Below are positions 31,801-60,869 of a stretch of 64,000 nucleotides of DNA, piece after piece. Within the stretch, counting starts at the first letter, position 1. Every line of letters begins with the position of its first letter. The stretch is from Spirochaetia bacterium (GTDB taxonomy: Bacteria; Spirochaetota; Spirochaetia; DSM-2461), in contig OY764216.1 of NCBI GenBank assembly GCA_963668315.1, forward strand, positions 5,408,001 through 5,472,000, written 5' to 3'. Position numbers and translations under genes: made by a program. Below the pieces are notes generated by a model, which was given only the letters and a program-made list of their open reading frames with translations, made no database searches and was not told where the DNA came from.

Positions 31801-32128
31801 CCAACAGGAAACGGCCACACGGGGAAAACGCCACGTCGTTGACTCTGCCAAGCTTGTGAGCTCCCGGTTCTTGGTAGCCTCGCAGGGATGTGTGGAGCAT
31901 GCCAGTCGTCAGGTTCCAGATACGAGCCTGCTTTCCGCCGACGGCCGCCAACCACTTTCCGTCAGGGCTGATCGAAAGCGCCTTGACGGGCACGCCGGAG
32001 AATCCCTGGGCATCGACGACCAATTGGGGGTCTGGCGTGGGGATGAGTTTGGTGTCGTCGGAGGCATGGAGGGTCGTATTGGTCAGGCCAACACATAGCC
32101 CGAGGACTGAAATCAAGACGGATCGCAT
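28806..32128 (-). CDS. Secreted WD40 + PDZ + Ig-like + caspase (C14) protein, split by one frameshift near 29,990
   Basis: ATG 32128 with GAGGAG RBS and signal peptide; WD40 repeats; PDZ-like VPPGSYGEAAGLQAKDEI; EWVAWT..GFYDAS; after the frame change LSGHG and DTCHSG. Confidence 0.82.
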
Positions 32129-32273
32129 CGCTATTCTCCTCAAGATAACGCCTTCCTGCTGACTGTTGGAATGCGACAGTCGAAGGGTGTGTAGCTCGCC
32201 ATGATACATAAAGCCCGCCGGGGTGTTGAGGCCCGTCTTCCCCTCTACCAAGGGAGATGTGCTCTGTGAGCGT

Positions 32274-32330
32274 AAAACAGAACAGGCCAACCCGACAAGC
32301 CGTGTGAGGAGGCATTGCCGGGTTGGCCTG
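32274..32330 (-). terminator. Probable intrinsic terminator after the coiled-coil gene
   Basis: Perfect 12-bp inverted repeat CAGGCCAACCCG / CGGGTTGGCCTG (32283-32330) followed on the minus strand by TTCTGTTTT. Confidence 0.6.
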
Positions 32331-32340
32331 GTGGTCGCGT

Positions 32341-33291
32341 TTACTTCTGAGACACGGACTGTTTGAAGATCGGGGTGTTCTCAGTCACCTCGATCGTGAC
32401 GGGCTCGGCATTCTTCTTGGCTGTCCGAGCCGGCGGGCGAGGGGCCGGGGGAACTTCGGCCCGCTCGGGCTGCTTGTCGTCGATCTTGGGGCTGTTGCTC
32501 CGATTGGTGGATTGGGGCGCCGGGGGCAAGTTTGCCTCGACGATCTTGGTTTCTTCCCGGACTTCGACGACACAAGCGGCCACGATCGCTGTGGCGACTT
32601 GCTCTGGCTCCGCGGCGAGGTATTCCTCGACCTTTCGCTTGCTTGCCTCGTCGTGGGTGTCATCCTCGATCTCCCAGGAAGGACGCACAGGGCTGCACGC
32701 GACGGCCTGAGCGTTCTCGATCATCAGTTGGTCGACCTCTGCCAGCAACTCCTGCCCCTCGACCGTCAGATCCTGTAGCCGGATCAACTCGCGTTTTGTG
32801 GCCAGTATTGCCAGTTGCGACTCGGTCTTGCCGATCTGTACGGCGTACTGCTCCATCTGCTGCTCCCCGCGAGCCAAAGTCGCCGCGAGTTCCTCCTGCG
32901 ACTGCCGGTAGCCTTCTGCCTCGGCCAGCAACAGGCTGACCTGAGAAAACATTTGGGCCTTCGTGTAGGCACAATCGTGAACAACCGCTGCGTCCTGGCC
33001 GGACTGCTCCAACTCTTGGTAGGCAACGCGGAAGTCATTGGCCAGAGATCGGGCTCGCTGGACCTTGGCCGACAGCTTGGAATTCTGGGCCGAGAGCCTT
33101 TCGACCTCGGTACCCAGTCGGAATCGGGCCTTGTTCATGGTTTCCAGGTCCTGGGCCAGCCTCGACTCCACGTAACGGACATAGGCAACCGGGTGGCGGT
33201 CTTTGACCTGCCCCAGGACCCAGGGGTACCCCACGTAGCTTGTAACGCCAAACACGAACACAGCCATCGTTGTAACAACCAACTTCTTCAT
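32341..33291 (-). CDS. Exported or membrane-anchored coiled-coil protein with a disordered tail ending QSVSQK
   Basis: MKKLVV hydrophobic N-terminus; long heptad-like helical region; AGGAG RBS. Confidence 0.75.
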   Translation of the reverse strand: MKKLVVTTMAVFVFGVTSYVGYPWVLGQVKDRHPVAYVRYVESRLAQDLETMNKARFRLGTEVERLSAQNSKLSAKVQRARSLANDFRVAYQELEQSGQDAAVVHDCAYTKAQMFSQVSLLLAEAEGYRQSQEELAATLARGEQQMEQYAVQIGKTESQLAILATKRELIRLQDLTVEGQELLAEVDQLMIENAQAVACSPVRPSWEIEDDTHDEASKRKVEEYLAAEPEQVATAIVAACVVEVREETKIVEANLPPAPQSTNRSNSPKIDDKQPERAEVPPAPRPPARTAKKNAEPVTIEVTENTPIFKQSVSQK

Positions 33292-33372
33292 CGTTCTTCT
33301 CCTGACAAGCATGCGATTTGTGAAGACTGCCTTCCAGAGCATTCGAGACGAGGTTTCCTTCCTCTGTAGCTC

Positions 33373-33402
33373 ATGGTCTCCCGGGGGCCGCGGATTGCGC
33401 GC
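33373..33402 (-). promoter_or_regulatory. Candidate ECF promoter, copy 1
   Basis: Minus strand GCGCGCAA-N16-GACCAT, about 80 nt upstream of the ATG at 33291. Confidence 0.55.
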
Positions 33403-33658
33403 CGAGCGGATAAGATCTTCGATGGACCGAGAATGACAACTACGTTAGTCATCTTACTGCCCTATGTCGCCTAATTGACATCGAGGGGTCGTTGCACGCA
33501 GAATGCGGGCCTTGTGAAATTGGGGCTTTTCGTATCCGGACGGGGACGCCGGGGTGCCGCGTTCGTGCCTGACCCCCTCGCCCGAGCGACTGCTAGAATG
33601 ACGCCTGTCACATGACGCTGCATCACAACTCACTTCCCGTGTATCTGGAACGACTTCC

Positions 33659-35130
33659 ATGAGAATTCCCCTTGCCGTCGCTTTCGTTGCCCTGACGAGT
33701 GCTCTCACTTCCGCAACCGAGCTACCCCGAAGCACTCCGGAGATGCAGGGCGTGTCGTCTCAGGCCGTTCTCGAATTCGTGAACGCGGCCGACAAGAAGC
33801 TCGATTCGCTACACAGTTTCATGCTGCTGCGCCATGGCCATGTGGTGGCGGAGGGCTGGTGGGCGCCCTATCGGGCGGAAGCCCCCCATTCTCTCTATTC
33901 GCTGAGCAAGAGCTTCACCTCCACGGCCGTGGGATTGGCGATCGCCGAGGGCAAGCTCAGTGTGGATGACGAACTGATCAAGTTCTTTCCAGAGGACGCC
34001 CCGGCGAACCCAGCAAGAATCTCAGGTCGATGCGGATCAGCGACCTGCTCCGCATGTCAACAGGCCACCAGACCGAGCCACCGCGCACGTCGACGGAGCC
34101 CTGGACCAAGACCTTCCTGAACCACCCGGTTCCGTTCAAACCGGGAACGCATTTCCTTTACAACACTTCGGCCACCTACATGCTGTCGGCGGTCGTTCAG
34201 AAGGCAACGGGAGAGGTCCTTCTGGACTACCTGAAGCCCCGTCTATTTCAACCGCTGGGCATTGAAAACCCTACGTGGGAAACGAGCCCTCAAGGCATTT
34301 CTACCGGCGGTTACGGGCTGAGCGTTCGCACGGAGGACATCGCCCGCTTTGGGCAACTCTACCTGCAGAAAGGCAAGTGGCAAGGCAAGCAGCTTGTGCC
34401 GGAGGCGTGGATCGAGGCGGCAACATCCCGACAGACCTCGAACGGCAGCAATCCGGCAAGCGATTGGGACCAGGGCTACGGCTACCAGTTCTGGCGTTGC
34501 CGCCACGGTGTCTTCCGGGGCGACGGAGCGTTCGGCCAATACTGCATCGTACTGCCCGAACAAGACGCCGTGATCGCCATCACCAGTGGCCTGGGAGACA
34601 TGCAGGCCGTGCTGAACGTGGTATGGGACGAGCTTCTACCGGCTTTGAAATCGGGACCTCTTGACGCTGACGAACAGGCAGCGAAGACGTTGGCGGAACG
34701 GCTGAACGGATTGGCGCTACCGGTGCAGGAAGACGTCGCTTCGCCCACGGAGCCTTTGGGTGGAAAGTACGCCTTCCCGGAGAACGAGAACAAGCTGGAA
34801 TCGATCGCGTTGGAGAGCGGTGACAGCAACAGTCGGGTGACCCTTGTGGCACGGATTGACGGCACGGACCAGCGGATCGTCTTCGGTCGCGGCAAATGGG
34901 TGACGGGCAAGGCCGCCTGGATCTCGACGGCCGAGCAGCCCGTGGCGGCGAGTGGCGGCTGGACCACAAACGATACGTTCACGGGGAAGATCTGTTTCTA
35001 CGAAACACCTTATGTCGTCACGGTAAGCCTGAAGCACGCAGGCAGTGAACTCCGCTGCAGCTCGACATGGAACGTCCGGTTCGGCGGTGCAAAACATATT
35101 GAGTTGCAGGGGAAGGCCCAGGACCAATAG
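33659..35130 (+). CDS. Serine hydrolase of the beta-lactamase class C family, with a 1-bp frameshift near 34,010
   Basis: Signal peptide; SLSK (SxxK), FLYNT (YxN), GYGYQFW and GDGAFGQ; two overlapping ORFs 33659-34120 and 34030-35130. Confidence 0.88.
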
Positions 35131-35674
35131 CGGGGCCGGCTCCTACAGCATTCCGGACTTCTCATTGCGAGTTCACTTCTGAGCCGTCCGGGTTCGTTTC
35201 GCACCGATTCCGGAATGTTTGGCCGCCGGTGAAAGGCCTTGGCGAGCAGCCCCCCGACACAGGGAGAACATTGCCCCAGATTCACAACAATAGGCAAAAT
35301 GCCCTTTTTTTCCGGCATGCGATATCAAATCGGGCAAGAGAACCTCCTGTTCGTTAGATGGAAGTGAAGAGTCCGGGCCATTAATAGGGACAGAGAAGCA
35401 CTTGGAACTCTGCTTCTGGGCGAAGTCTGGGTATCTCGCACGATTTCTGCCTTTCTGGGCCACTTGTTTTCCGGAGTTTTTTTGATCAGACTAAGGCTCC
35501 CTTTCTAAGCCGTTATGCTGTTGGCCCACCGTTGCGTGGCCATGCAGACCTCGACGGGACGAATTAGAAAACGGGGCAGGATCTGGTTGTTTTCTTTTTC
35601 CTAGGGGAGGAGTACCTCCTCCTCCTTCTAGATATCCGGATTGCGTGTGCCATTTTTGGCATTTTGGTCGTTCC

Positions 35675-35704
35675 GCGCGCAACTCGTGTCTTCGCGGGGA
35701 CTAT
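35675..35704 (+). promoter_or_regulatory. Candidate ECF promoter, copy 2
   Basis: GCGCGCAA-N16-GACTAT, about 60 nt upstream of the ATG at 35763. Confidence 0.55.
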
Positions 35705-35762
35705 CTCTTCCGGGCAGTGAAGAAAATCCAGTTTCCTAACCACCTGAAAGAGGAGATGTGTC

Positions 35763-36095
35763 ATGTCGATCCGCAGGAGCATGCTGTTGCCGTTGGCCGT
35801 CCTGATGCTTGGCCTGGTCCCCGTTGGGACGACCCTGGCCGGTACGGGGACGAAGGCTCCCCAATCGCAGAGCCAGAAGCAGCAGGCGCCGAAGAAGGCG
35901 CCCCAGAAGGCCAAACGTCCTACCCAAACCGTGGTGAAGCATCACGGCGCGCACCGCTACGTGTGGGTCCGAGTGACGCCCGCCACGGTCAAGTATGAAG
36001 GCGACAGCCCGAAGTCTCAGCAGCCGACCGCGAAGCCGAGCAAGCGTACTCAGCAGAGCACGCAGCAGAGCGTTTCGCAGAAGCCCGGCAAGTGA
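35763..36095 (+). CDS. Small secreted Gln/Lys-rich protein
   Basis: GAGGAG RBS; signal peptide ending TLA; by hand count 14 Q and 13 K in about 84 mature residues; ends QSVSQKPGK. Confidence 0.8.
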   Translation: MSIRRSMLLPLAVLMLGLVPVGTTLAGTGTKAPQSQSQKQQAPKKAPQKAKRPTQTVVKHHGAHRYVWVRVTPATVKYEGDSPKSQQPTAKPSKRTQQSTQQSVSQKPGK

Positions 36096-36345
36096 CCCCA
36101 GTCGGCGATTCCTTGACGGAACGGTCATGAGGTACCGACCGTTTCGTCGGGGCATGCCATTGAGCGACATTTGGAGGCGCGGGGGCTCGTGAGATTTCGG
36201 GCCCCCCGCCATTACCGCCGTACGCGACTCTACCAAGGAGTCATAAGAAAGATGCAGGGACTTACGATTGATACTGTCGACAACTGTCCGGACTGGGTTC
36301 GGGAATCATCCCCGGTTGCAGCCTTGGGATGAAGGTTGCCGCAAG

Positions 36346-37254
36346 ATGGACAAGCGTTTGCACTCATGGCGCCGCGAGTATTCGTCCAGCGTGTGCGACC
36401 AGGTCTTCGCGGGTGACTGCGAGGACAGCCGCGTGCTTTTTCAACGCCACTGGGAGTGTTGGATTCACCACTGGCAGACGGCGGGGCAGGAGGTTGACGG
36501 CGAGACCGTTGCCGAATCGATCGAGAAGGGCGTGGGCTACGTGGGCGGGGGCGACCTGGGGGGCAACCCCTTGTTTGACCTGGTGCTGGCCCTGGCCGTC
36601 ACTCGCCGGCATAGCAGAGCGGCGTCCCGCTTCCAGGACGAGTTCTTCGAGGAGGCCAAGTGCCACGCACGCAAGCTCGCGGCGGTTTTTTCACGGGAAG
36701 ATCCGCTGGAATGGTGGACCGAGTTCTTCGACGAACTGGGCGGCTTCAGCGGGCGCCCGGCGAAGCTCGATCGCTATAACGGTCGGACCTCGCTCCGCCG
36801 ATGGGTGCCAATTGTCCTGTGGAATTATCTGCGAAATCTGCTGAGGAAGCGGGGGAGGCGAAACGCCAAGGAAGGCACACTGCCCGATACGGTACGAGAC
36901 GCGAAACAGGAGGAGATCCCCGTGGAGGAGCAAGAGAACTTCGCAACGCTTTCGGCCATTTTTCGGTCCGCGTACGAGCAATTGTCTTCGGAAGACGCCA
37001 GCCTGCTTTCTCTGTACTACGACGAGGGATTATCGAATCTGGAGGTCGCCTCTCTGCTGGCGATCAATCCCGGTACGGCGACGCGGCGACGCAAGCGTGC
37101 CGAACAGAGGTTTCGCGAACTGCTTCTTCAAGAGGCCGAACAGCGGAACGAGTCGCTTCAATCCTTGCAGGAGCGAATTGCCTCGGCGGGGGTCGACTTC
37201 GCCAGCCTGCTGTTCAGCGTCGTCGAGAACCGAGACGAGGAGGTGACGTCATGA
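36346..37254 (+). CDS. ECF-type RNA polymerase sigma factor (resembles the myxobacterial TIGR03001-like type)
   Basis: DLVLALA...A...F and KLDRYNGRTSLRRW (region 2); LSSEDASLLSLYYDEGLSNLEVASLLAINPGTATRR (region 4). Start uncertain. Confidence 0.85.
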   Translation: MDKRLHSWRREYSSSVCDQVFAGDCEDSRVLFQRHWECWIHHWQTAGQEVDGETVAESIEKGVGYVGGGDLGGNPLFDLVLALAVTRRHSRAASRFQDEFFEEAKCHARKLAAVFSREDPLEWWTEFFDELGGFSGRPAKLDRYNGRTSLRRWVPIVLWNYLRNLLRKRGRRNAKEGTLPDTVRDAKQEEIPVEEQENFATLSAIFRSAYEQLSSEDASLLSLYYDEGLSNLEVASLLAINPGTATRRRKRAEQRFRELLLQEAEQRNESLQSLQERIASAGVDFASLLFSVVENRDEEVTS

Positions 37255-38411
37255 CCGAGCGGCAAACACTCGAAGAACTTGTCCGCCAGGCCTTTCGCAG
37301 CGGGCTGCAGACTTCCCACGATTCCGGGGGCTACCATCCGGTTGATGATGACGACTTTCTCATCGACCTGTCGATCGGTGGCACTTCGGATGCGAAGCGT
37401 GCCGAATTCGTCGACCACCTGGCGCGCTGTTCCTATTGCCGGCACGAAATCGCGCGGATGATCCAGGCGGGGGTGCTTCAGTTGCCGGAAGTCGCGGCCG
37501 AGGAGCCGCCTCAGGCAATCTCGTTGCCGCCGCGGAACGCATCGCGTTGGCACTCCGCCCGAATCCTGCTTGCGGCAGCTGCCGCGATCCTGATCGTCGT
37601 GGGAGTCTCCATACTCTTCATGCCGGGAACGAGCGAATTGGCGCTGGCCCGGAACGACTTGAAGGCCGATCGATACCTTTCGGCCCTGGAACACGCGGAG
37701 GCCTACCTGGATTCGTCGGCGGACGACGCTTCCGGGAGAGAGGAAGCGAAGCAGATTCTCAGCGACGCGGGGTACCGGCAGTCGCTCGAATCGTTGAAGA
37801 AGAGCGACTTCGAGCTCGTGAAGGAATTGGGAAGCCGGGTCGAAGACCTTGCGGGGCGATCGCCGCGGATGACCAATCTGAAGCTGCAGGCGATGCGGAA
37901 ACAAACCGGCTCGTCTGCGTGGCCTGGTCGGGGTGAGTTGACCGAATACGGCTATCGTCTTGACGGCCATTCCTATGCCAAGCCTTTGCCGGTCTTCGAC
38001 GAGAACGTGAAGGCGATTCTCTCGGGATACGAACGTGCCGTAGCCGAGTTCCCCGACGATTCCGAACTGCGACTGAATTACGGGCAGTATCTCCTGGAGC
38101 AGGACGATCCGGAGGGGGCGCGAGCCCAGTTCCTGGAGGCGCAGCGATTGGCCCCGAATGCACTCGAAACGCAGATGGCCCTGGGAATCGTCGCCTTCCA
38201 GCAGAAGCACTTCGATGCGGCCATCGGGTATTTTCGCTCTGTTTTGAACGGTCAGCCCGACAACACGCAGGCCATGCTGAACCTTGCCGTTTGCCATGCC
38301 CGGCTTGGCCAGAAGGCCGAGGCCGTGTCGTGGTTCGAGAAAGTCCGCGACCATCTCGCTCCCGGCCCTCGCCGCGACGAAGTGGACCGTGCCATCAACG
38401 ATCTGAAGTGA
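37251..38411 (+). CDS. Zinc-binding anti-sigma factor (ZAS) with one TM helix and extracytoplasmic TPRs
   Basis: ATGA overlap with the sigma stop; HLARCSYC (HxxxCxxC); TM ILLAAAAAILIVVGVSIL; C-terminal TPRs. Confidence 0.88.
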   Translation: MTERQTLEELVRQAFRSGLQTSHDSGGYHPVDDDDFLIDLSIGGTSDAKRAEFVDHLARCSYCRHEIARMIQAGVLQLPEVAAEEPPQAISLPPRNASRWHSARILLAAAAAILIVVGVSILFMPGTSELALARNDLKADRYLSALEHAEAYLDSSADDASGREEAKQILSDAGYRQSLESLKKSDFELVKELGSRVEDLAGRSPRMTNLKLQAMRKQTGSSAWPGRGELTEYGYRLDGHSYAKPLPVFDENVKAILSGYERAVAEFPDDSELRLNYGQYLLEQDDPEGARAQFLEAQRLAPNALETQMALGIVAFQQKHFDAAIGYFRSVLNGQPDNTQAMLNLAVCHARLGQKAEAVSWFEKVRDHLAPGPRRDEVDRAINDLK

Positions 38412-38463
38412 CCCTTTGAAGAACCATCTGGCTATCTCTGGACAACCCAATCGAGGTGAAACG

Positions 38464-40059
38464 ATGACAACGCAACGCCAGCTCCTGCCCATCACGCTCG
38501 CCGCTATCCTTGTGGTCGCAACGCTGGTTCCCGCCCGGGCCCAATCGGGCCGGACGCTCAATAACTTCCTTGCCCCCCAAACCAAGGCGGAGAACTCGAA
38601 CGAGAGTCCTGCGGCCGAGGACGCCGCTCATCCGGCCTTCTTCGTCAACCTGGACGTAGATCGGGACGATCGCCTCTACGAGGAGGGAGAGCTGATTCGG
38701 GCCACGGTCAAGTCGGAACGAGCCGGTTACCTGTACGTCTTCGTCGTCTCCGGCGACGGCACGGCCCTTTGCCTGTTTCCGAACAACTACGACCGCAACA
38801 ACCGGATTCCGGCCAACCGGGAGATCGTGGTTCCCAGCCCCGAGGCGCCTTTCAAACTGAGGGTTACGGCTCCGTTCGGAGAGGAGGGCCTTGTGGCGAT
38901 GGTGTCGGAGGAGGAGATCAAGCCCGAGTTGCTGGGGGCCAAGTCGCTCACGGAGAAGCCTGCGACGGAGGTTTCATGGTCGAAGGCGATTGAAGTGGTA
39001 CCCAAGTACGACTGTGCGGATGACATGGTGGTCATTCGGACGGTGAAGTCGCGGGCAGAGGCACGTCCGGCGGGCGAGGGTGCTCGCCCTGGGGCCGCCG
39101 AGCGAGAAGAGGGCCGGGCCGAAGCCACCGGGACGTCGTCCGTACGCCGGGTCGGCCTCTTTGTGGGAATAACCAAGCATCTGCACATAACCGACAACGA
39201 CATGCCTTCCATTTCGCACAGCGTTGACCTCGTAGCGGCCGCCATGCATGACTTCGGTCACCTGGACGAGATCATCCTCGTGCGAGATGACAAGGCTTCT
39301 CACGACGGGATTGAAGCCGCCTTCGCGAAACTCGTCAAAATGACCAATCCGGGCGATGAGGTCTTCATCTACTGGGTCGGTCACGGATGCGCCTATGACT
39401 TTGCGGACGGCCGCCATGAGAATCTCCTGTGCGTCTACGATTCGGACGTTGTCGCCGATGAAAACGATCACCCCTGCCCCACAAACTACGTGCTTGAGAC
39501 AGAGTTCACCAAGTGGGTTCGAAACCTGGAGAAACGCCGCATTGCCATCGTTGTGGATTCGTGTCATTCCGGGGGGCTGCTGGATGCTGAACCGACGGAC
39601 ACGGTTCGGTGGGCGGAGTCACTGGAGCGTTCGGGCAACGAGTCGCTCACGAGCGTGATGTCGGGCGTCAAGGTCGGCGACATGACGAAAACGCTCACCG
39701 ATCTTCGCGACAAGACCCAAACGCCCGACGACGACGGACCGCTCTTCCTGATCGATGCCCTGCGGCGACTCAAGGGAATCGGCGAAGGGGACGCGGCCGT
39801 GATCCTGTCTTCCGCCGAGGATCAAGCATCATTCGGCGGGCTCTTGTTTAATGGAAAAGAGTACGGTCTGGCATCGTTCTGCTTCGCGGCAGCGATTATC
39901 GACGCCCCCTTGCTCTACGCCGGAACCGACCGACAACTCACATTTGCCGAAGCCTGGCTGTTCATGAAGACCCATGTCACCGCGATCAGCCTGGAATTAG
40001 AGCGGTACCAAACCCCGGTCTATTACAACCCGATCGGTGAGATCATTGTGAGGCCTTGA
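38464..40059 (+). CDS. Secreted DUF4384-like + caspase (C14) protein
   Basis: Signal peptide (ARA|Q); DR..RLY.EGE...GYLYVF...LFPN.YD.NNRI; YWVGHG and VDSCHSG. Confidence 0.85.
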   Translation: MTTQRQLLPITLAAILVVATLVPARAQSGRTLNNFLAPQTKAENSNESPAAEDAAHPAFFVNLDVDRDDRLYEEGELIRATVKSERAGYLYVFVVSGDGTALCLFPNNYDRNNRIPANREIVVPSPEAPFKLRVTAPFGEEGLVAMVSEEEIKPELLGAKSLTEKPATEVSWSKAIEVVPKYDCADDMVVIRTVKSRAEARPAGEGARPGAAEREEGRAEATGTSSVRRVGLFVGITKHLHITDNDMPSISHSVDLVAAAMHDFGHLDEIILVRDDKASHDGIEAAFAKLVKMTNPGDEVFIYWVGHGCAYDFADGRHENLLCVYDSDVVADENDHPCPTNYVLETEFTKWVRNLEKRRIAIVVDSCHSGGLLDAEPTDTVRWAESLERSGNESLTSVMSGVKVGDMTKTLTDLRDKTQTPDDDGPLFLIDALRRLKGIGEGDAAVILSSAEDQASFGGLLFNGKEYGLASFCFAAAIIDAPLLYAGTDRQLTFAEAWLFMKTHVTAISLELERYQTPVYYNPIGEIIVRP

Positions 40060-40134
40060 AGAAGGGCAGGGAGCCGCCCTGCTGAATAAAACGGTGGTCT
40101 GCCAGCGATTCGGTGAGCTAACAGGAGGGGACCG

Positions 40135-44175: not shown

Positions 44176-44216
44176 GCTCTGCTCTGGCATTTATACATTA
44201 CCGGAGGGATGCTACG

Positions 44217-48173: not shown

Positions 48174-48244
48174 GGCTCCTGCCGCGACTATTGCGTTCCA
48201 GACCATTCGCTCACGGAAATCCGATAACAAGAAGGAAGGCCACA

Positions 48245-51200
48245 GTGTTGTACAAATACCGTTCGCGATGTTTGGCATCGATTGGGATGTTGCTCCTGCT
48301 TCTGTGCCAAGACCGTAGTGCTCGCGGCGATGACCTCAAGGAATGGAATCGCCTTTTCGCGCTTTGTGTGAAACAGACCGCAACGGGGCGCTTTGACGAG
48401 GCAGAGCGGAGCGTTTTCAAGCTCAAGGAGATTGCCGAAGGGCCGTTTTCCGACGAGCCGGCATGCATGGGGCATGTCCTCAGCCTTCGTGGCAATATCA
48501 ATCTCTGCCGTGGTGACTATGCAACAGCCGAGTCGTTTTTTGCACGCTCTTTGGAGATCTTTTCGTCTTCGCTCGGGAAGAGTCACCCGAATGTAGCCCT
48601 GGCGCACATGAATCTTGGAGTGACTTATCGCAAGCAGGGCAAGGAAACGGCGGCAGGACGCTCCTACGAACGTGCCCTGGCAATTCAGGAAGAGCTTATC
48701 AAGGAAGACGCAAGCGCAGAGAGCATCGAGCGGTCGGGCATTATTGACACACTGTCAAATCTGGGAGTGCTTCGCCAGTTGCAGGGGCGCGACGCCGAGG
48801 CGGTACGAGTTCTCGAACGTGCGCTGACCTACAGCAGCGAATGCGGAAACGAAACGTCGTCAGCAGAAGCGGGGGCACACAGCAACCTTGGGGGACTCCT
48901 CAACAAACTGGAACGCTATTCGGAGGCCATTGCCCATTTTGAGCAGGCCCTTGCCATTCGCAAGAAGATCCATGGCCAGGAGAACATCGACTATGCCCTG
49001 ACCCTGAACAACCTTGCGGCGGCCCATTTCTATCAAGAGCAGTACGACAAGGCGGAGCCGCTGTACCTTCAGGCACTGACCATTTGCGACAAACTGCCGC
49101 CGACGCCCGAGTCGGAGAGGATCACCACGACCTGGTCCGACAAACTCGCATCGATCTGCGAAGCGCAAGGCCGCTTTGCCGACGCGGAATCGCTCCACCG
49201 GCGTTTGCTGGCTCATTACGAGCGAGCCGACAAGCGTGACAACACGGCCGTTGCCATGAGCTTGAACAACGTCGGGTACTGCTGTTACATGCAGGCAGAG
49301 TACGACGACGCCGAGCAGATGTACAAACGCGCCCTGGCCCTTCGTGAGCGGATACACGGGAAAGACCATCCGGAAGTCGCAACCGTCGTCGGAAATCTCG
49401 GAACACTCTATTCGGCGCAGGGACGACTGGCCGACGCCGAGGAGTTCCACAAGCGGGCCCTACGCATCCAAGAAGACACGCTGCCCCGAAACGACCCTCG
49501 GATCGCCCTAAGCCTGAACAACCTGGCTGATGTCTATCGCATCCTGGCGCAGTACAGGAAAGCGGAACCGCTCTATGAGCGGGCACGCTCGATCTTCGAG
49601 CGATCGCCCGGAAGAAACAGCTTCGAATACGCCATGGCTCTGAACAATCTCGGCGTCCTCCATTCCGAAGTTGGGAACTATGCAACGGCGGCCGACTTTC
49701 ATCAGCAAGCCTTGAAGATCCGAGAGAAGCTTCAGGGAGCATCTCACCCGGATGTCGCGTTGAGTTCGCATAACCTGGCCACCGTGTATCTGGACGAGGG
49801 ACGTGACCTCGAGGCGAAGAAGCTCTTTGAACGCGCCCTGAAGATCTATCGGGACGCCGGACAAGGCGCACATCCGAATATCGCCCCCGTTCTCGATCTC
49901 CTGGGGAACGTCTACGTACATTTGGGACAATATGCCGATGCCGAAGCGCTTCTTCGGGAAGCGTTTGTGATCCGCCAGAGTGCGTTGGACCCCGGCCATA
50001 TCCAAGTGGCCACAAGCTACAACAATCTAGCCACAATCGCCACTCTGAGTGGCCGTTACGAGGACGCGTGCGCCCTGTCGGAGAAAGCTCTGGCAATCCA
50101 AGAGGATGTTCTCGGCGGCGATCACCCGGAAATCGCACGGACCCTGAATGCAATTGGCGGGACACATTTCGCCCGTGGCAGCTTTGCCGAGGCCGAGCCC
50201 TATCTTACGCGAGCCCTTTCGATTCGGGAGAAGGCCGGCTCCGATGAGCAGATCGCAGAAAGCCTCAATAATCTGGGAACGCTTCATGGTGACCTGGGGC
50301 ATTTCGAGGATGCGATTCGATTGCATGAACGAGCATTGAGTATTCGCAGAAACGCCGGCGGAGGTGCGTCCGAGTATGTTGGCCAGAGCCTGGTGAATCT
50401 CGCCATCGTGTATCGCGATCAGAAACAGTATGCCGCGGCAGAGCCGCTCATCGACGAAGCGATAACACTCTTCGATGACTTCCAGGCGAAGAGTGGCTGG
50501 AAGAACACCGCTCATCTGGTGCGTTCGGATATTCGGATGCGGCAGGGACGCCCGGACGCGGCATTGGCCGATATCCGAACCGCTATGCAACAGGCCAACG
50601 AGGTGCGGAAACAGATGCCCGGCGTCGCTCACCAGCGAGCGACCGCCTTCGGCCAGTTCGCCAGTGCATTCGAGAAAATGGTGGAATTCCAGACGGACGT
50701 GGAGGATTTGCCACAAGCCTTTGCCGCGATCGAGAGCTTCCGTGCCCAAAGCCTCCAGGATTTGATGCACTCCGCCGGCGTCGCTCTTCTCGAGGGTGTG
50801 CCCGAAGACAATGCGACTCGCTTGCTTCGAGCCGAATCTGATGCCAAAGCGGAAGTGGCGGCACTGCAGAAGCAACTTGACGTGATGCGTATCCGCTCCG
50901 ACATGGACGATGGAGAGAAGGTCCAGGAGACGAGACGACTTGCCCAGGCCTTGGAAGAGGCCCACGGGCGTCTTGTGCAGGCCTGGGCCGATATCAAGAA
51001 TGCCAGCCCGGCCTACCGGATGATTGTGACGGAAGACCGAGAACCGGTGAAGTTGGAGGTCTTCCAGGAAGAACTGAGCGGATCCGGCACCCTCGCTTTG
51101 CAGTACATGCTCGGCCAAGACAACGGTTTCCTCCTTGCCTACGGCGGCGGAATCGAACCGGTGCTCAGCAAATTGGACGTCAAGGAAGCCCAAGCCACGA

Positions 51201-52312
51201 CGCTCGGCTGCAAAGCAGGCCCACTCACTGCGGCCCAAGTTCGGCAGATTCTATTGGGCAACGACGACCGCCCCGGACTCCTCCAAGAGCTGACAAATCG
51301 GAATCAGATTGAGGACGACGGCCTTCCGTCAGAAGAGATAATCAAGCAACTCAACACGCTCTGGACGGTCCTTGTTCCTGACGAAACGCTCCGGGAGAAA
51401 CTGGCTGACGGTGAGGCCCTTCAACGTCTGTTGATTTTGCCGGACGGGATTCTGGCTCGGCTGCCCTTCGAAGCTCTGGTCGTCAACGACGATCCCGTTA
51501 ACCCGGAATACCTGATCGACAACGGGCCGGCGACCATGTATGCTCCCTCGGCCACAGTCTTCTACAACCTCAAGCATCGCAAGCTTGCCTCTTCGGAGGG
51601 CGAGACCCTCACCGTGGGCAACCCGCGATATGGAGGCGACGGCGAACCGGGCGATCGTGGAGACGTTCTCGACGAGTTGAAGACGGCTAGCCGGTTTGCC
51701 CATCTGGGTACGCTTGCCGAACTGCCGTGGACTGGGGATGAAAGCCGTTGGATCAAGGAGTCATGCGACGCCAAGGGCTTGCCGGTTGTCCAACTGACTC
51801 AGGAATCGGCCACCGAGGCCAAAGTCCGCCAAAACGTGGCCGGCCGATCACTCGTCCATCTCGCCAGCCACGGCATGGCCGATGGTTCGCACGGCAACCT
51901 GTTCGGTGCATTGGCACTCACCCCCGTCGATGCCGGAGACACCTCGAACGACGGATTCCTGACCGTAGCCGAGATGTTCGATCTGGACCTGCACGCCTGC
52001 GAGCTGGCGATCCTGAGTGCCTGCGACACGAACATCGGCCCCAATCAGCGTGGGGAAGGCACGTGGTCGATGTGCCGGGGAATGTTGACATCGGGCGCGC
52101 GGCGTGTGGTCACCACCGACTGGCAGGTGGCCGACGAGGCTTCGGCTCACCTGGTGTATGCATTCGTCTATTACCTGCACGATTCCGAATCGCAGGCACG
52201 CGACCACGCCGAATGTCTGCGTAACGCCCGGCTTTCGATTCGGAACCATGACACTCGCCAATGGCGGCACCCGTATTTCTGGGCGCCGTTCGTGTTGACG
52301 GGACCGGAGTAG
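48245..52312 (+). CDS. Secreted TPR-CHAT protease, copy 3
   Basis: GTG start after AAGGAAGG; signal peptide (ARG|DD); TPR array; HLASHG/LSACDT dyad. Confidence 0.92.
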   Translation: MLYKYRSRCLASIGMLLLLLCQDRSARGDDLKEWNRLFALCVKQTATGRFDEAERSVFKLKEIAEGPFSDEPACMGHVLSLRGNINLCRGDYATAESFFARSLEIFSSSLGKSHPNVALAHMNLGVTYRKQGKETAAGRSYERALAIQEELIKEDASAESIERSGIIDTLSNLGVLRQLQGRDAEAVRVLERALTYSSECGNETSSAEAGAHSNLGGLLNKLERYSEAIAHFEQALAIRKKIHGQENIDYALTLNNLAAAHFYQEQYDKAEPLYLQALTICDKLPPTPESERITTTWSDKLASICEAQGRFADAESLHRRLLAHYERADKRDNTAVAMSLNNVGYCCYMQAEYDDAEQMYKRALALRERIHGKDHPEVATVVGNLGTLYSAQGRLADAEEFHKRALRIQEDTLPRNDPRIALSLNNLADVYRILAQYRKAEPLYERARSIFERSPGRNSFEYAMALNNLGVLHSEVGNYATAADFHQQALKIREKLQGASHPDVALSSHNLATVYLDEGRDLEAKKLFERALKIYRDAGQGAHPNIAPVLDLLGNVYVHLGQYADAEALLREAFVIRQSALDPGHIQVATSYNNLATIATLSGRYEDACALSEKALAIQEDVLGGDHPEIARTLNAIGGTHFARGSFAEAEPYLTRALSIREKAGSDEQIAESLNNLGTLHGDLGHFEDAIRLHERALSIRRNAGGGASEYVGQSLVNLAIVYRDQKQYAAAEPLIDEAITLFDDFQAKSGWKNTAHLVRSDIRMRQGRPDAALADIRTAMQQANEVRKQMPGVAHQRATAFGQFASAFEKMVEFQTDVEDLPQAFAAIESFRAQSLQDLMHSAGVALLEGVPEDNATRLLRAESDAKAEVAALQKQLDVMRIRSDMDDGEKVQETRRLAQALEEAHGRLVQAWADIKNASPAYRMIVTEDREPVKLEVFQEELSGSGTLALQYMLGQDNGFLLAYGGGIEPVLSKLDVKEAQATTLGCKAGPLTAAQVRQILLGNDDRPGLLQELTNRNQIEDDGLPSEEIIKQLNTLWTVLVPDETLREKLADGEALQRLLILPDGILARLPFEALVVNDDPVNPEYLIDNGPATMYAPSATVFYNLKHRKLASSEGETLTVGNPRYGGDGEPGDRGDVLDELKTASRFAHLGTLAELPWTGDESRWIKESCDAKGLPVVQLTQESATEAKVRQNVAGRSLVHLASHGMADGSHGNLFGALALTPVDAGDTSNDGFLTVAEMFDLDLHACELAILSACDTNIGPNQRGEGTWSMCRGMLTSGARRVVTTDWQVADEASAHLVYAFVYYLHDSESQARDHAECLRNARLSIRNHDTRQWRHPYFWAPFVLTGPE

Positions 52313-52346
52313 TGGTCACAAGACTCATCTCGACTCGGAGAGCACC

Positions 52347-55300
52347 GTGCGACCGATCCTATCGCTCTTTCTCGCTATTTCAGTCACGCTTGTTTCAGGC
52401 TCCCTTGCTTCTGCTCAGTCGCTGAAGTCCTTCTGCGCCGATGCGGAACGTGCAAGGCAGTTCATTTCTTCCGGGCAGTACGCAGAGGCTGACCGGCTTA
52501 CGGCCGAACTCGTTGCCGCCGCACAGAAGCGTTTTGCTGCGGAGGAACGGGCATCGACCGAACTCAACAACATCGGATTGGCGTATTTCCGCCGAGGCCG
52601 TTACGATCGTGCTCGACGCGCATTCATGCCTGCGTTGACGATCTCCGAAAATATCGATGCGAAGAGTCTTGATACGGGGATCATTCTGGACAATCTGGGA
52701 GTGATTGCGAGCAAGCAGGGGCGATACCAGGATGCAGAACGATACGAGCAGAGGGCTTTGGCAATCCGTGAAAAGGCATTGCCGGGAGACAGTCCACTTG
52801 TTGCCTTGTCCCACAATAATCTCGGGACATTGTATCAAAGGCAGAATCGATATTCCGAGGCCGAACAGCATCTCAAGGACGCAATAGATATCTACCGAAA
52901 GAAGACGGACAAGTCATTGGATCTCGCGCGTAGCCTTGACAACCTCGGCACCGTGTACGAGAGGCTCGGGCGATATTCCGAATCTGAAGCCCTGTACAAG
53001 GAGGCACTGAAGATACGCGAAGCTCAGCTCGATCCCATGCATGTCAGTCTCGCCTCCACACTCAATAACCTCGGTGTATTGTACAAGGCAACGGGACGGT
53101 ATACCGAGGCAGAACCGCTTTATGAGCGGGCGATTCGAATCTGGGAGCACCAAGACCACCCCAGTCGCGCCTGGGGTCTGGACAATCTGGCTACGTTGCG
53201 TGACGTGCTCGGTCATTATTCAGAGGCCGAAGAGCCCTGCCGGCGAGCCCTCAACCTGAGATTGAGGACATTTGGGGAAGGCCATCCTGAGGTCGCAACG
53301 AGCTATAACAACTTGGCGTTAATTCTGGATCACCAAGGAAAGCACGCTGAAGCGGAGGACCTCTACAGACGGGCACTGGAGGCGGCAACGGCACAAACCG
53401 GCGATGATCCGGATACGGCGACTCGGCTCAACAACCTCGGCTCCCTCCTGCGAGATCTCGGCAAATTCGACGAAGCGGAGCCTCTGCTGAAACGTGCGGT
53501 GGAGATCCAGGAAAGCAGGGGCAACGGGGAGCCGTCGGCACTCGGATACAAGTTGAGTAACCTCGCGGTGCTCTACGATCTTCTTGGACAACACGCTCAA
53601 GCAGAGAAGCTGCACTTGCGCGCCTTGAATGTCTACGAGAGTGGTTGTCCATCGGGACACCCGGACATTGCGACCGGACTACATTGCCTTGCCTTTCACT
53701 ACTCTGAACAACGCCGGTACGAAAAGGCAGAGCCCCTGTTGCGCAAGGCCATGGAGATATGGGAAGCAAGGGAAATGACGGGGCATCCGGCGTATGCAGC
53801 CTGCCTCAACACGCTGGGAACACTTCTTGATGATCAAGGCCGCAACGCTGAGGCCGAGGAGGTCCTTCTCAAGGCACTGGAGGCGAACGAGAAGGTATTC
53901 GGAGAGAATCACCTCAATGTGGCGATAAATCTTCAGAATCTGGCTGGTGTCTACTGGGACCTGGACCGAAATTCTGATGCGGAACCACTCTTCCGGCGTT
54001 CCCTCAGGATCTTCGGACAAAAACTGGGAACAGATCATCCCACGTACGCGACAGCTCTCACACGGCTTGCCGGCCTGGCCAGATTCGAGGGACGCGCTTC
54101 CGAGGCCGAATCGCTATGCAGTCAAGCGGTAGAGACGGTGCGCAAGACGGGCGTATGTGCCCCACGATTCGCCGTGGAGTGTTTTGTCAACCGGGCACAG
54201 CTCTATTGGGCGCTTGGGCGAGAAGAGGAGGCAATTGACGATTTGGAAGAGGCTATGACGTACGCCGGCCAGGTGCGTGAGCACGCTTCAGGGGGCGATG
54301 TTCATAGGTCGATGACCTTCGCGAGCTATGTCGGGGTCTTTGAGGTAATGCTCGACTGGCAGGCGAAACTCGGCGAGTTGACCGTGGCGTTCCAGACGAT
54401 CGAACGCTGTCGTGCCCAGGGCCTTCAGGATCTTATGCAGTCCAACGGGATGGACCTGCTTGAAGGCGTGCCGGAACAGACCGCCTCCGAATTGCGGGAA
54501 GCGGCACACGTTGCACAGGCCGAAGTAGCCTCGCTGCTCAAACAGATCGAGGTGCTTCATGAACGTACGGACTTGGCGTCGAAAAAGAAAGCCAAGAAGA
54601 CGGAAGATCTCGTCGATCTTCTCGACAACGCCCGCGAATCACTAGTGCAGGCCTGGGCGGATATCAAGAACGCCAGCCCCGCCTACCGGATGGTCGTGAC
54701 GGAGAATCGAGAACCGGTGCCGTTCGAGGCGTTCCAGCAGGAACTTGGGAAGTCCGATACGGTTGCACTGCAATACTTGCTCGGTGAGAAGAACGGTTTC
54801 CTCCTTGCCTACGGCGGCGGAATCGAACCGGCACTGATCACGTTGGAGATCAGTGACACTCAGTCCGAGGTGTTCGGCTGCGATGCCGGCCCGCTAACGG
54901 CTGCTCGCTTTCGGCAGGTTCTTCTGGGCAACAAGGATCGGCCGGGACTTCTCCGCGATTTGACGACCCTCGGGGAGGTGACTGACGAAGGTCTGCCATC
55001 GAAAGAGACCCTCAATGCCTTACGTACTCTGTGGGCTGTTCTCGTGCCCGATGAGACGCTGCGTGAGAAGCTCGTCGACGGGGAGAGCTTCAAACGCCTG
55101 TTGATTCTTCCGGACGGCGTCCTTGCCCGATTGCCCTTCGAAGCCCTGGTCGTGAACGACGATCCGCAAGCTCCGGAGTACCTTCTCGACAACGGGCCGC
55201 CGACCATGTACGCTCCTTCGGCCACCGTGTTTCACAACCTCAAGCAGCGAGAGGTCTCTGCTTCCAAGGGTGAGACGCTGACGGTCGGCAATCCGAGCTA

Positions 55301-55982
55301 CGGTTCGACAGCCCAACCGGGAGATCGCGGAACGGTTCTGGAAGAACTTCAGATTGCCAGTCGCTTCGCCCATCTCGGACGGCTTGCCGACCTGCCTTGG
55401 ACCGGTGATGAGAGCTGCTGGATCAAGGAATCCTGCGAGGACAAGCATCTGCCGGTGGTCCAGTTGACAAAAGAGAAGGCGACCGAGGAGAACGTTCGCA
55501 ATAACGTTCGAGGCCGTTCGCTGGTTCACTTCGCCTGCCATGGTCTGGCGGACAACGAGTATGGGAATCTGTTCGGGGCCCTGGCCTTGGCGCCGGTCGA
55601 TGCGGGCGATCCGTCGAACGACGGCTTCCTGACCGTGGCCGAGATGTTCGATCTGGACCTGCACGCCTGCGAGCTGGCGATCCTGAGCGCCTGCGACACG
55701 AACATTGGCCCCAATCAGCGTGGGGAAGGCACGTGGTCGATGTGCCGGGGGATATTGACGTCGGGCGCCCGGCGTGTGGTCACCACCGACTGGCAGGTGG
55801 CTGACGAGGCTTCGGCTCACCTGGTATATGCATTCGTCTACTACTTGCACGATTCCGAATCGCAGGCACGCGACTACGCCGAATGTCTGCGTAACGCCCG
55901 GCTTTCGATTCGGAACCATGATAATCGGCAATGGCGGCATCCGTATTTCTGGGCGCCGTTTGTGTTGATGGGACCGGAGTAG
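52347..55982 (+). CDS. Secreted TPR-CHAT protease, copy 4
   Basis: GTG start after GGAGAG; signal peptide (ASA|Q); TPR array; HFACHG/LSACDT dyad. Confidence 0.93.
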   Translation: MRPILSLFLAISVTLVSGSLASAQSLKSFCADAERARQFISSGQYAEADRLTAELVAAAQKRFAAEERASTELNNIGLAYFRRGRYDRARRAFMPALTISENIDAKSLDTGIILDNLGVIASKQGRYQDAERYEQRALAIREKALPGDSPLVALSHNNLGTLYQRQNRYSEAEQHLKDAIDIYRKKTDKSLDLARSLDNLGTVYERLGRYSESEALYKEALKIREAQLDPMHVSLASTLNNLGVLYKATGRYTEAEPLYERAIRIWEHQDHPSRAWGLDNLATLRDVLGHYSEAEEPCRRALNLRLRTFGEGHPEVATSYNNLALILDHQGKHAEAEDLYRRALEAATAQTGDDPDTATRLNNLGSLLRDLGKFDEAEPLLKRAVEIQESRGNGEPSALGYKLSNLAVLYDLLGQHAQAEKLHLRALNVYESGCPSGHPDIATGLHCLAFHYSEQRRYEKAEPLLRKAMEIWEAREMTGHPAYAACLNTLGTLLDDQGRNAEAEEVLLKALEANEKVFGENHLNVAINLQNLAGVYWDLDRNSDAEPLFRRSLRIFGQKLGTDHPTYATALTRLAGLARFEGRASEAESLCSQAVETVRKTGVCAPRFAVECFVNRAQLYWALGREEEAIDDLEEAMTYAGQVREHASGGDVHRSMTFASYVGVFEVMLDWQAKLGELTVAFQTIERCRAQGLQDLMQSNGMDLLEGVPEQTASELREAAHVAQAEVASLLKQIEVLHERTDLASKKKAKKTEDLVDLLDNARESLVQAWADIKNASPAYRMVVTENREPVPFEAFQQELGKSDTVALQYLLGEKNGFLLAYGGGIEPALITLEISDTQSEVFGCDAGPLTAARFRQVLLGNKDRPGLLRDLTTLGEVTDEGLPSKETLNALRTLWAVLVPDETLREKLVDGESFKRLLILPDGVLARLPFEALVVNDDPQAPEYLLDNGPPTMYAPSATVFHNLKQREVSASKGETLTVGNPSYGSTAQPGDRGTVLEELQIASRFAHLGRLADLPWTGDESCWIKESCEDKHLPVVQLTKEKATEENVRNNVRGRSLVHFACHGLADNEYGNLFGALALAPVDAGDPSNDGFLTVAEMFDLDLHACELAILSACDTNIGPNQRGEGTWSMCRGILTSGARRVVTTDWQVADEASAHLVYAFVYYLHDSESQARDYAECLRNARLSIRNHDNRQWRHPYFWAPFVLMGPE
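54645..55982 (+). repeat. Near-identical ~1.34-kb CHAT-coding repeat; partner at 46836-48173
   Basis: Colinear with 46836-48173; I saw only scattered substitutions. Confidence 0.9.
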
Positions 55983-56107
55983 GTTGGATTACCGCGTTTG
56001 TTGGAGATCCTGATTGACACTTTGCCCTTTCCGTTGTTTTCGAACCCCAAGCGGCAAGGAGGCTGCAACGAGAGGCTTCGACCCTGAATCTCTGGAGAAG
56101 AACATTG

Positions 56108-57226
56108 ATGCGACCTCGACAAATACAGGGAACCTTCTGGATCGTAATCCTGGGCGTTTTGGCGGGACCGGTCGCGGGCCAGATTGCGGTGGCTCCGCCG
56201 ATGCCCGACCATGCTTCGGTCGGCAAGACGTGGGTGGTTGCGATCGGCGTCGGCAAGTATGAGCACTTGCAGTCATTGGCTTATACGTTGGCTGATGCCA
56301 AGGCATTTGCCGACGCCTTCGAGGAGGTGGGATTGGTCAACCGACGGCAAGTGCGGCGGGTGACCGACGGCGATGCCGCGATTTCGGACGCCAAGGCGCT
56401 CCTCAGGCTGCTCGAAGGGCAAATGGGCAACGCCGGTTCACAGGACACCTTCGTCCTCTTCTACGCCGGTCATGGCTACAGTTCCGAAGACGGAAAGGCC
56501 TTTCTGGCGCCGGCGGGATTCGATTTGGATCGGCCGGCTGAGACGGGGATTTCGATGGAACGCCTCCGTGAGGTATTGGACGCGTGCCCCGCTCGTGTGA
56601 AGTGCGTCATCCTCGACGCGTGTTACAGCGGCGGGTTCAGCACGGACCGGCAGTTCGACGGGCAGGCCGCCGTGGATTTGCTCAAGAGCGCTCGCGGCAC
56701 GGTCGCGATATGCAGCAGCACCGACCGGCAGCCGAGCCTGGAATCGGCAGAACTCGAGCACGGTGTGTTCACGTATTGGCTGGTTCGCGGACTTCGCGGA
56801 GACGCCAATTCGCAGATCGACACGGTCATCGATGCGGCGGAACTGTTTCGCTACGTCAAGGACCGGGTGGCCAAGACGGCGGACGAAGCGGGAGGTCTCG
56901 TGCAGCAGCCGACCTGGGGCCTGGACCGCATGCCCGAGATCCCCACGGTGATCGAATTGCGACGTCCCGACCGGCCGAGTGTGCTGGTGCCGATGAAGGC
57001 CGCGCCGCTTCCTCCGGATCCGAAGGTACTCTCCGTTTTCCTGGACAGCATCGAACATTTCCCGCACGCCAATGCCCGAAATGCGATCGGCATCTCGAAA
57101 TGGGTGCTGGCGAACGCTCCTCCCGGCTCCAGTCTCGCAAGGCGAGCCCAAGCGCATATCGACAAGCTCGACAAGATGATCCTGGAAGGCACGCTGCGTC
57201 TGCCGCCGCCGGGAGAGGAGGAATAG
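56108..57226 (+). CDS. Secreted caspase (C14) protein with a short helical C-terminal domain
   Basis: Signal peptide; FYAGHG, ILDACYSG and HGVFTYWL. Confidence 0.88.
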   Translation: MRPRQIQGTFWIVILGVLAGPVAGQIAVAPPMPDHASVGKTWVVAIGVGKYEHLQSLAYTLADAKAFADAFEEVGLVNRRQVRRVTDGDAAISDAKALLRLLEGQMGNAGSQDTFVLFYAGHGYSSEDGKAFLAPAGFDLDRPAETGISMERLREVLDACPARVKCVILDACYSGGFSTDRQFDGQAAVDLLKSARGTVAICSSTDRQPSLESAELEHGVFTYWLVRGLRGDANSQIDTVIDAAELFRYVKDRVAKTADEAGGLVQQPTWGLDRMPEIPTVIELRRPDRPSVLVPMKAAPLPPDPKVLSVFLDSIEHFPHANARNAIGISKWVLANAPPGSSLARRAQAHIDKLDKMILEGTLRLPPPGEEE

Positions 57227-57324
57227 AGGCGTTTTTCCCACGCGTTCGACTTTTTGGGATGCCTCCGACGCGTGCCGGGACGGGACGCCCCCCCCGATGG
57301 CGTGAAACGGGGACTGAAGATTCT

Positions 57325-57353
57325 CGCGCAATCCAGGCGGATGGTAGGTGTAT
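57325..57353 (+). promoter_or_regulatory. Candidate ECF promoter, copy 3
   Basis: CGCGCAA-N16-GTGTAT, about 50 nt upstream of the ATG at 57404. Confidence 0.45.
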
Positions 57354-57403
57354 TGCTGACAGTATTGGAATGGCTTTTTTTTCCCGAATATGGAGAAATC
57401 ACG

Positions 57404-57865
57404 ATGAGAGACAGATGGTTGTTTGTGGCTGCCGGACTCCTTTTGGTCGCTTGCCTGGGATGTTCGTCCGAACCGCCGGCGGACTCGAAGACGGGGCAGA
57501 AGCCCGACCCCCCTGCCCAGGAGCAAGCAGTTCCCTCCGCGCCTGGTGACGAGCAAGGCCAGGTCGACCTGAAGCAGGCTCCCGTGGCTGTGCCCAGCAA
57601 GACGGGCCAGGAGCAGTCGGAGGTTCCTCCCGCACCAGGTGACGGACAAGAACAGGTTAGTCAGAAACAGGCTCCCGTGGCTGCGTCTGCCAAGGCAGGT
57701 TCGGATCAGCTGAAGATCCCTGCTGCACCTGGTGACGGGCAAGGTCAGGTTAGTCAGAAACAGGCTCCCGTGGCTGCGCCCGGCAAGTCCGCCCCGGAAA
57801 AATCAGAAGCTCAGCCCGCGCCGGGCGACCAGTCGGGGGCAGCGAACGAGAAGCAGACGCAGTAA
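57404..57865 (+). CDS. Lipoprotein with 31-aa Gln/Lys/Pro-rich repeats
   Basis: GGAG RBS; lipobox-like LVACLG|C; repeats of P.APGD.Q.QV..KQAPVA. Confidence 0.8.
   Translation: MRDRWLFVAAGLLLVACLGCSSEPPADSKTGQKPDPPAQEQAVPSAPGDEQGQVDLKQAPVAVPSKTGQEQSEVPPAPGDGQEQVSQKQAPVAASAKAGSDQLKIPAAPGDGQGQVSQKQAPVAAPGKSAPEKSEAQPAPGDQSGAANEKQTQ
57530..57830 (+). repeat. About 3.3 imperfect 93-bp tandem repeats inside the lipoprotein gene
   Basis: CAGGCTCCCGTGGCTG recurs at 93-bp spacing. Confidence 0.85.
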
Positions 57866-60817: not shown

Positions 60818-60869
60818 CCCCAAGACAATTCCATTCGATATCAACGTGAAATCAAGACTAGGAGACACA

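Follow-up and report, generated by a model that had tools for sequence, protein, structure and literature searches.

According to the available portions of PMC4915311, transglutaminases join glutamine to lysine, and GP42 of Phytophthora sojae is a cell-wall transglutaminase with homologues in oomycetes and Vibrio; the CH motif of GP42 is described in PMC10318531. The Bacillus subtilis enzyme Tgl (spore coat) and the Streptomyces mobaraensis transglutaminase are described as using Gln and Lys to cross-link exported or coat proteins made by the cell itself (PMC6490927, PMC4757070). Animal cornified-envelope proteins (SPRR, loricrin and involucrin) are described as disordered, Pro/Gln-rich and cross-linked by transglutaminase (PMC8348711); we draw on them as an analogy, with no claim of homology. 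Here we analyse a locus that encodes a GP42-type enzyme together with three proteins that share the peptide VSQK: a coiled-coil protein, a small secreted protein and a lipoprotein, all predicted to be exported. The locus lies in a stretch of 64,000 nucleotides (the window; positions 5,408,001 to 5,472,000 of contig OY764216.1, assembly GCA_963668315.1), and its features are collected in Table 1.

The enzyme shares with GP42 (3TW5, PF16683) its fold (template modelling (TM) score 0.70), adjacent Cys and His residues, a WNxP segment and probable export. It differs from GP42 in being only 18% identical, in its fusion to DUF4384, in having a dedicated partner gene and in its position within a locus of extracytoplasmic function (ECF) sigma factor, caspase-like and CHAT genes with candidate substrates. 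As for Tgl and the Streptomyces enzyme, cross-linking of the organism's own proteins through Gln and Lys is what we propose here. Those enzymes belong to different families, and the available portions of their descriptions mention neither shared terminal Gln-Lys tags nor a co-located sigma factor and protease regulon. The locus also recalls DdvS-DdvA of Myxococcus xanthus and the type III-E Csx29-Csx30-RpoE system, which likewise combine an ECF sigma factor, a transmembrane zinc-type anti-sigma factor and TPR-CHAT proteases; DUF4384 occurs in one Csx30 group (PMC11506125, bioRxiv 10.1101/2022.08.17.504292, in the portions available). Unlike DdvA, the anti-sigma candidate of the window has TPR repeats without a CHAT match, and CHAT is found in separate proteins; the Pfam scan of the window recognised neither a CRISPR nor a CBASS gene, and the apparent output here includes a transglutaminase with tagged proteins. 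The locus belongs to neither group of systems. Our literature search found no natural substrate of a GP42-family enzyme, no planctomycete member of the family and no account of the present locus, although supplements may list such loci; the available text of PMC8195603 and PMC7826278 does not describe the present system.

A six-frame scan finds VSQK four times in the window, every copy within the open reading frame (ORF) of one of the three proteins. The small protein also carries SQSQKQQAP near 35865, and the lipoprotein carries QVSQKQAP at 57653 and 57746; since both lipoprotein copies belong to one 93-nt tandem repeat, there are three independent instances. The Ser codons of the motif (TCC/TCT, AGC/TCG and AGT among the three genes) switch class, so the match is not a recent DNA copy, and duplication between the three genes is ruled out. 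An earlier note on this DNA had reported VSQK in these three proteins with differing codons; the scan and the codon classes agree, and the observation is real. Among 12,807 residues of 19 locus proteins VSQK occurs 4 times, against an expected 0.09. In 100,000 composition-preserving shuffles, any 4-mer common to all three tails arose in 0.29%, and any 6-mer common to the last 10 residues of two tails in 0.001%; the shared 4-mer thus exceeds what the biased composition, named in the earlier note as a possible cause, would yield. These results support a shared protein-level tag. By composition and N-terminal hydropathy, Gln and Lys lie in low-complexity segments of all three proteins, and the mature part of the small protein is 17% Gln and 15% Lys. 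A signal, a lipobox and hydrophobic segments suggest that the three are exported and anchored.

Literal VSQK is ruled out as a family motif, because the endings of the three orthologues that we found read VTQK and IRQK (coiled-coil) and VAQK (small protein). Conservation in orthologues, which the earlier note had proposed to check, therefore holds for x-Gln-Lys and not for VSQK itself. Terminal QK is kept in all three orthologues, at 50-60% identity, and Q-S-[VI]-x-Q-K stands at the end of both nearest coiled-coil relatives and of the sole small-protein relative; the latter (P0124, 57% identical) also keeps SQSQKQQ and the terminal VAQK-PGK segment. Across 156 relatives of the coiled-coil protein, the tail is often Lys-rich and terminates in P[IV]F-x-Gln-[SF], so that the tag of the window reads as this family motif plus a lineage extension, [VI]-x-Gln-Lys. 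The pattern [IVFL][FY]xx falls within the last 16 residues of 62 of the 156, with Gln at the fourth place in 57 of these 62, and the conserved Gln is mostly the penultimate residue. Other relatives end in PxAPGD or have no tail, one (P0156) has both motifs, and some distant relatives terminate in F. Three nearby copies of the coiled-coil gene occur in some genomes (L193 in G424, L203 in G518 and L204 in G495).

The earlier note had overlooked a second shared tag: the coiled-coil protein and the lipoprotein have the 6-mer EVPPAP in common, and [VI]PxAPGD is shared by coiled-coil tails and lipoproteins of the clade to which the window belongs. Sites are found in the window (32440-32457 and 57530-57835) and in L003, L034, L036, L082-L084 and L088. 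Each 31-aa repeat of the lipoprotein, two exact and one degenerate, contains PxAPGD and QVSQKQAP, and PxAPGD lipoproteins with QK repeats are present in L034, L036 and L088. More generally, small secreted proteins, PxAPGD lipoproteins and the N-termini of the enzyme's partner protein in related loci carry xQK or poly-Gln repeats beside the enzyme gene or an ECF gene. An 81-aa secreted protein ending in VSQK is encoded upstream of a fused partner-enzyme gene in L020 (216-461), outside the clade of the window. Searches with tblastn found no lipoprotein orthologue outside the window, relatives being recognised by motif alone. The tail pattern gave 27 matches over 401 genomes, 26 of them with a mismatch; in the 10 loci retrieved and at 5 further places, nothing matched the proteins of the system. 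A close orthologue of the whole locus was sought in the genome collections, where the best enzyme match was 64% identical.

The enzyme is a member of the GP42 family by profile, predicted fold and motif, and would presumably carry out transamidation. It scores 71.1 bits against the PF16683 profile (cut-off 25) and a hidden Markov model comparison supports the GP42 fold at E 6.5e-20; DUF4384 is also found. Its structural model has a predicted local distance difference test score (pLDDT) of 89.8, and Foldseek at E<=0.001 matches only 3TW5 (3tw5_A, E 5e-15, TM 0.70). Cys92 and His93 are invariant in 33 of 33 aligned homologues, as are N185, D120 and D132, candidates for the third catalytic Asn/Asp, with active-site distances unreadable from the model; in a wider alignment of 100 the catalytic Cys is invariant and the His is kept in at least 90%. 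The enzyme was present in 8 of 301 genomes sampled from the order and in 40 of 251 sampled from the family around G001. In most planctomycete loci a partner homologue directly precedes the enzyme, and 4 of the 33 aligned proteins are fusions of the two; the partner could be a pro-domain, a carrier or a regulator. Weak LolA-like (9/50) and MucB/RseB (4/50) matches were seen in the partner family, and an ESM Atlas lead is CT021-like (0.93, low recognition). A single-sequence fold of the partner (pLDDT 36.8) was unusable and was set aside. A 12-nt repeat of 27.8 copies (window 59723-60056) encodes the GTPS repeats that link the enzyme domain to DUF4384.

Alignment of the regions upstream of the three tagged genes revealed GCGCAA-N16-G(A/T)(C/G)(T/C)AT before each. 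In the 195 kb, a strict form drawn from two of the sites has 4 occurrences (shuffle mean 0.0-0.2) and a relaxed form has 6 (shuffle mean 0.18, 60 shuffles). The remaining three sites are outside the window and precede genes named by sequence inspection: a caspase-like gene, a hydrophobic ORF of 43 aa and a radical-SAM gene. Because an ECF sigma factor and a likely anti-sigma factor come after the small protein, the motif is a putative promoter read by the local ECF sigma factor, and the genes behind it a candidate ECF regulon. Scans for sigma-70 promoters gave 2 matches (shuffle mean 0.8) and 0, none correctly oriented before the three genes. The motif gave 14 matches in other loci, against 8-19 in shuffles, and was above chance in the lineage of the window alone. 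Behind a copy of the motif, at G000:C1 ~5486000-5490200 (window-relative 77995-82146), stand this radical-SAM gene, three near-identical Cys-rich precursors and an ABC exporter, likely a cluster for a ribosomally synthesised and post-translationally modified peptide (RiPP) in the same regulon.

A probably exported GP42 relative, probably co-induced with three proteins whose disordered tails place Gln beside Lys, is therefore most simply read as an enzyme with its substrates. On balance we favour, with modest confidence, the explanation that the QK tails provide Gln-donor and Lys-acceptor sites for cross-linking by the neighbouring GP42-type enzyme. The enzyme would then cross-link the tagged proteins into a covalent envelope meshwork. 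In it, the coiled-coil protein would act as a strut anchored in the membrane, the lipoprotein as its partner, held by a lipid, and the small protein, which is soluble, as filler. With the tagged genes first in their units, substrate would outnumber enzyme. That caspase-like and CHAT proteases might switch the system on is speculative. Transamidation by the enzyme and reaction at these Gln and Lys residues are inferences, as is every catalytic and regulatory step named here. A wider scheme resembles a clotting cascade: an envelope signal would free the ECF sigma factor, which would co-induce tagged scaffolds, exported caspase-like and CHAT proteases, the transglutaminase and the RiPP cluster, and proteolysis would unmask the enzyme, so that the three tagged proteins would be welded covalently into a patch or shield within the envelope of the planctomycete. 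We regard this scheme as rather doubtful. The locus offers a GP42 relative and three candidate substrates, likely co-regulated, with defined residues, and it links DUF4384 and the exported caspase-like and CHAT proteases, all of obscure role, with a definite output. Should cross-linking occur, it would mean a covalent protein layer in the unusual envelope of planctomycetes and a transglutaminase with its own tag for biotechnology.

Comparison with related loci bears on this proposal. The enzyme is present in 13 of the 15 genomes with a strong coiled-coil match, compared with 40 of 251 overall; this count leaves out 5 genomes with weaker matches that end before the tail, all of them without the enzyme. 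Among 94 distinct loci, 30 QK clusters fall within the system (686 kb of sequence) and 2 outside it (366 kb). One of the two outside clusters is a lipoprotein before an ECF gene in L045. That protein (L045 2831-3790) was considered as a member of the coiled-coil family and rejected, since only its N-terminus matches. QK/KQ ranks top of 19 dipeptides, at 6.4-fold enrichment; QT is at 3.2-fold and QQ at 2-fold, and EK, KE, KK and EE show no enrichment (under 1). Small secreted Q/K-rich ORFs are found in 10 of 108 cases inside the system, 0 of 33 outside it and 0 of 15 in the planctomycete background of the window. Genome-wide, the pattern QKQxQKQ (24 matches in 251 genomes) is no commoner than its reversed control (30 by our count); 11 of its matches are no more than 7.3 kb away from the enzyme gene.

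Several results weigh against cross-linking of tagged substrates. A QK cluster is present in just 19 of the 94 loci, many of which are short, with a skew to low-GC loci (14/27 vs 5/67); a few of the counted clusters are probably out of frame, and the window's own three proteins fall below the cluster threshold. Ten of the 11 enzyme-linked QKQxQKQ matches come from three genomes preselected as positives, and the 7 clusters found in 65 more distant GP42-like loci (706 kb) include no clear case of a dedicated protein. The hydrophobic-aromatic tail is missing from 94 of the 156 coiled-coil relatives, some of which have PxAPGD alone. The earlier note had placed VSQK in the first gene behind each candidate promoter; this is so for all three sites in the window and fails over the whole locus, where the genes behind the three outer sites lack VSQK and 3 of 6 motif-led genes are thus untagged. 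Other points of the same kind fit the view that the shared VSQK arose within a single lineage as a by-product of repeat slippage and of tails that are polar and low in complexity, with only the coiled-coil PIFxQ functional. Literal VSQK has changed in orthologues, and 56 different 4-mers recur in at least 3 of the 19 locus proteins, so that weight comes from terminal position and composition and not from the sharing of a 4-mer. QK clusters are largely confined to one clade: in a quick tree, with the careful search unfinished and loci with short matches left out, the window falls in a 23-row clade (Shimodaira-Hasegawa-like approximate likelihood ratio test 99) that holds 13 of 16 hand-labelled QK loci, which are therefore not independent and have a near-single origin. 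In addition, xQK slippage repeats arise at unrelated genes in similar genomes (L179 and L192). We nevertheless hold this by-product explanation to be unlikely, given that a shared 4-mer arises in at most 0.29% of shuffles, that the Ser codons switch class, that terminal QK persists in the orthologues at 50-60% identity and that control dipeptides are not enriched; the VSQK-ending protein upstream of the enzyme in L020, a single case, lies outside the clade.

It is about equally improbable, in our estimate, that the tails are non-covalent docking tags, bound by a DUF4384, TPR, PDZ-like or LolA/RseB-like domain or by a protease, in assembly or ECF sigma signalling. P[IV]F-x-Gln-[SF] and [VI]PxAPGD do resemble short linear binding motifs, they are shuffled between coiled-coil tails and lipoproteins and meet in P0156, and DUF4384, TPR and caspase-like domains abound in the locus. 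We co-folded the tail of an orthologue (P0126 residues 255-290) with P0003, an enzyme-DUF4384 chain probably from the same contig as P0126, and with the partner of the window. The score was 0.47 against 0.00 for the best control, which lends the cross-linking proposal weak support, with contact agreement of at least 0%, no contacts and a partner pLDDT of at least 44. Of the solved pairs, 116 of 157 reached this mark, as did 2 of the 215 mismatched ones; those at scores up to 0.60 were just 18 solved pairs and both mismatches. Since the chain held both enzyme and DUF4384 and gave no contacts, this weak pass cannot separate docking on one from docking on the other. Docking is at odds with an enrichment that is specific to Gln beside Lys, often in long monotonous repeats of varying unit, which would be more readily expected of reactive side chains than of a fixed epitope. 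Of the functions that the earlier note had offered for the tag, a transglutaminase site fits best, with the correction that orthologues depart from literal VSQK. Lys-specific cleavage is a poor fit, since the coiled-coil protein ends in Lys, which leaves nothing to cleave. PDZ ligands carry a hydrophobic C-terminal residue, and a PDZ ligand also fits poorly, the three proteins ending in K, K and Q. A different chemistry would have the papain-like GP42 relative cut after the Gln of PIFxQ and move the new C-terminus of the coiled-coil protein to an amine, either a Lys of a QK protein or a wall component. The conserved Gln is indeed mostly second-last, and PMC10318531, in its available portions, places GP42 in a papain-like superfamily with the deconjugating peptidases Atg4b and UfSP1. 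We consider such backbone transpeptidation very improbable: in the text available, the one characterised member of the family that we found is termed a transglutaminase, and the internal QK repeats of lipoproteins and partner N-termini need no backbone cut.

Table 1. Features of the locus, in window coordinates
Feature	Position	Strand	Remarks
WD40 and caspase-like (C14) genes, downstream of coiled-coil gene	21773..32290	-	His-Cys motifs present
Coiled-coil protein, 316 aa, hydrophobic N-terminal anchor/signal, disordered tail	32341..33291	-	unnamed planctomycete family
C-terminal tag PIFKQSVSQK of coiled-coil protein	32344..32373	-	followed by stop (32341-32373 including stop)
EVPPAP, 6-mer common to coiled-coil protein and lipoprotein	32440..32457	-	k-mer comparison; PxAPGD in related tails and lipoproteins
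Promoter-like motif GCGCAA-N16-GACCAT	33373..33400	-	before coiled-coil gene
Promoter-like motif GCGCAA-N16-GACTAT	35677..35704	+	before small secreted protein
Small secreted Gln/Lys-rich protein, 110 aa, SQSQKQQAP and terminal QSVSQKPGK	35763..36095	+	
QSVSQK of small secreted protein	36066-36083	+	followed by PGK-stop
ECF sigma factor, start approximate	36346..37254	+	TIGR02937 above cut-off
Likely anti-sigma factor: HxxxCxxC motif, hydrophobic segment, C-terminal TPR	37251..38411	+	antisigma model weak, below cut-off
DUF4384/caspase-like gene, four TPR-CHAT proteases, one caspase-like gene	38416..57226	+	Pfam, His-Cys motifs
Promoter-like motif GCGCAA-N16-GTGTAT	57326..57353	+	before lipoprotein
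Lipoprotein, 153 aa, lipobox LGC, 31-aa repeats	57404..57865	+	start corrected to ATG 57404
Conserved partner protein	57972..58784	+	usually directly upstream of enzyme; fused in some genomes
GP42-type transglutaminase domain (Cys92-His93), GTPS-repeat linker, DUF4384	58781..60817	+	Pfam, fold, alignment
DUF4384 and caspase-like gene after enzyme	60711..62345	+	Pfam

The start of the coiled-coil gene was corrected to a likely ATG at 33291, where a ribosome-binding site is present; the protein had no match in the Pfam scan, and ESM Atlas gave unnamed clusters. The four tandem TPR-CHAT paralogues (40135-55982) are alike in their CHAT domains but diverge in their TPR arrays, and may be diversifying sensors; two further CHAT-type genes lie beyond 62370. 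The WD40 protein at 21773-26635 has two caspase-like domains, the first with Gly in place of the catalytic Cys and the second with Cys kept. Recurrent [KR]-[GSAD]-[ILM] motifs (RGIAVE, KAIEVV, KGLEVV and KSL, for example) occur at 28806-30155, 38416-40059, 57972-58784 and 60711-62345, in homologues and in the linker of fused partner-enzyme proteins; they are possible caspase-like cleavage sites.

The assembly, filed under Spirochaetia, is one 5.62-Mb sequence of mostly ~52% GC, whose last 195 kb have ~60% GC and a different dinucleotide signature. Contigs from public runs, which may include the source sample, break at window 20913/20914, with other sequence continuing on both sides. The contig break and the shift in composition therefore place the locus on the DNA of a second organism. 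Its named homologues are planctomycetes; the left part of the window we take, as an impression, to be spirochaete-like. The junction falls inside the ORF at 20235-21749, a chimera in which a deacetylase-like gene meets a BNR-like one; ~195 kb of planctomycete-like DNA are joined here to a different genome. Two runs cover 20914-39400 or 24834-39400, with the lipoprotein beyond the covered stretch. Relative to the window they show five single-base gaps but not a single substitution, and the coiled-coil and small-protein ORFs contain none of the gaps. These single-base differences (29992, 34005, 35723, 36202 and 36301) are likely errors in the window; that at 29992 would explain why the WD40 ORF and the caspase-like ORF behind it are split, and that at 34005 the split beta-lactamase-fold ORF.

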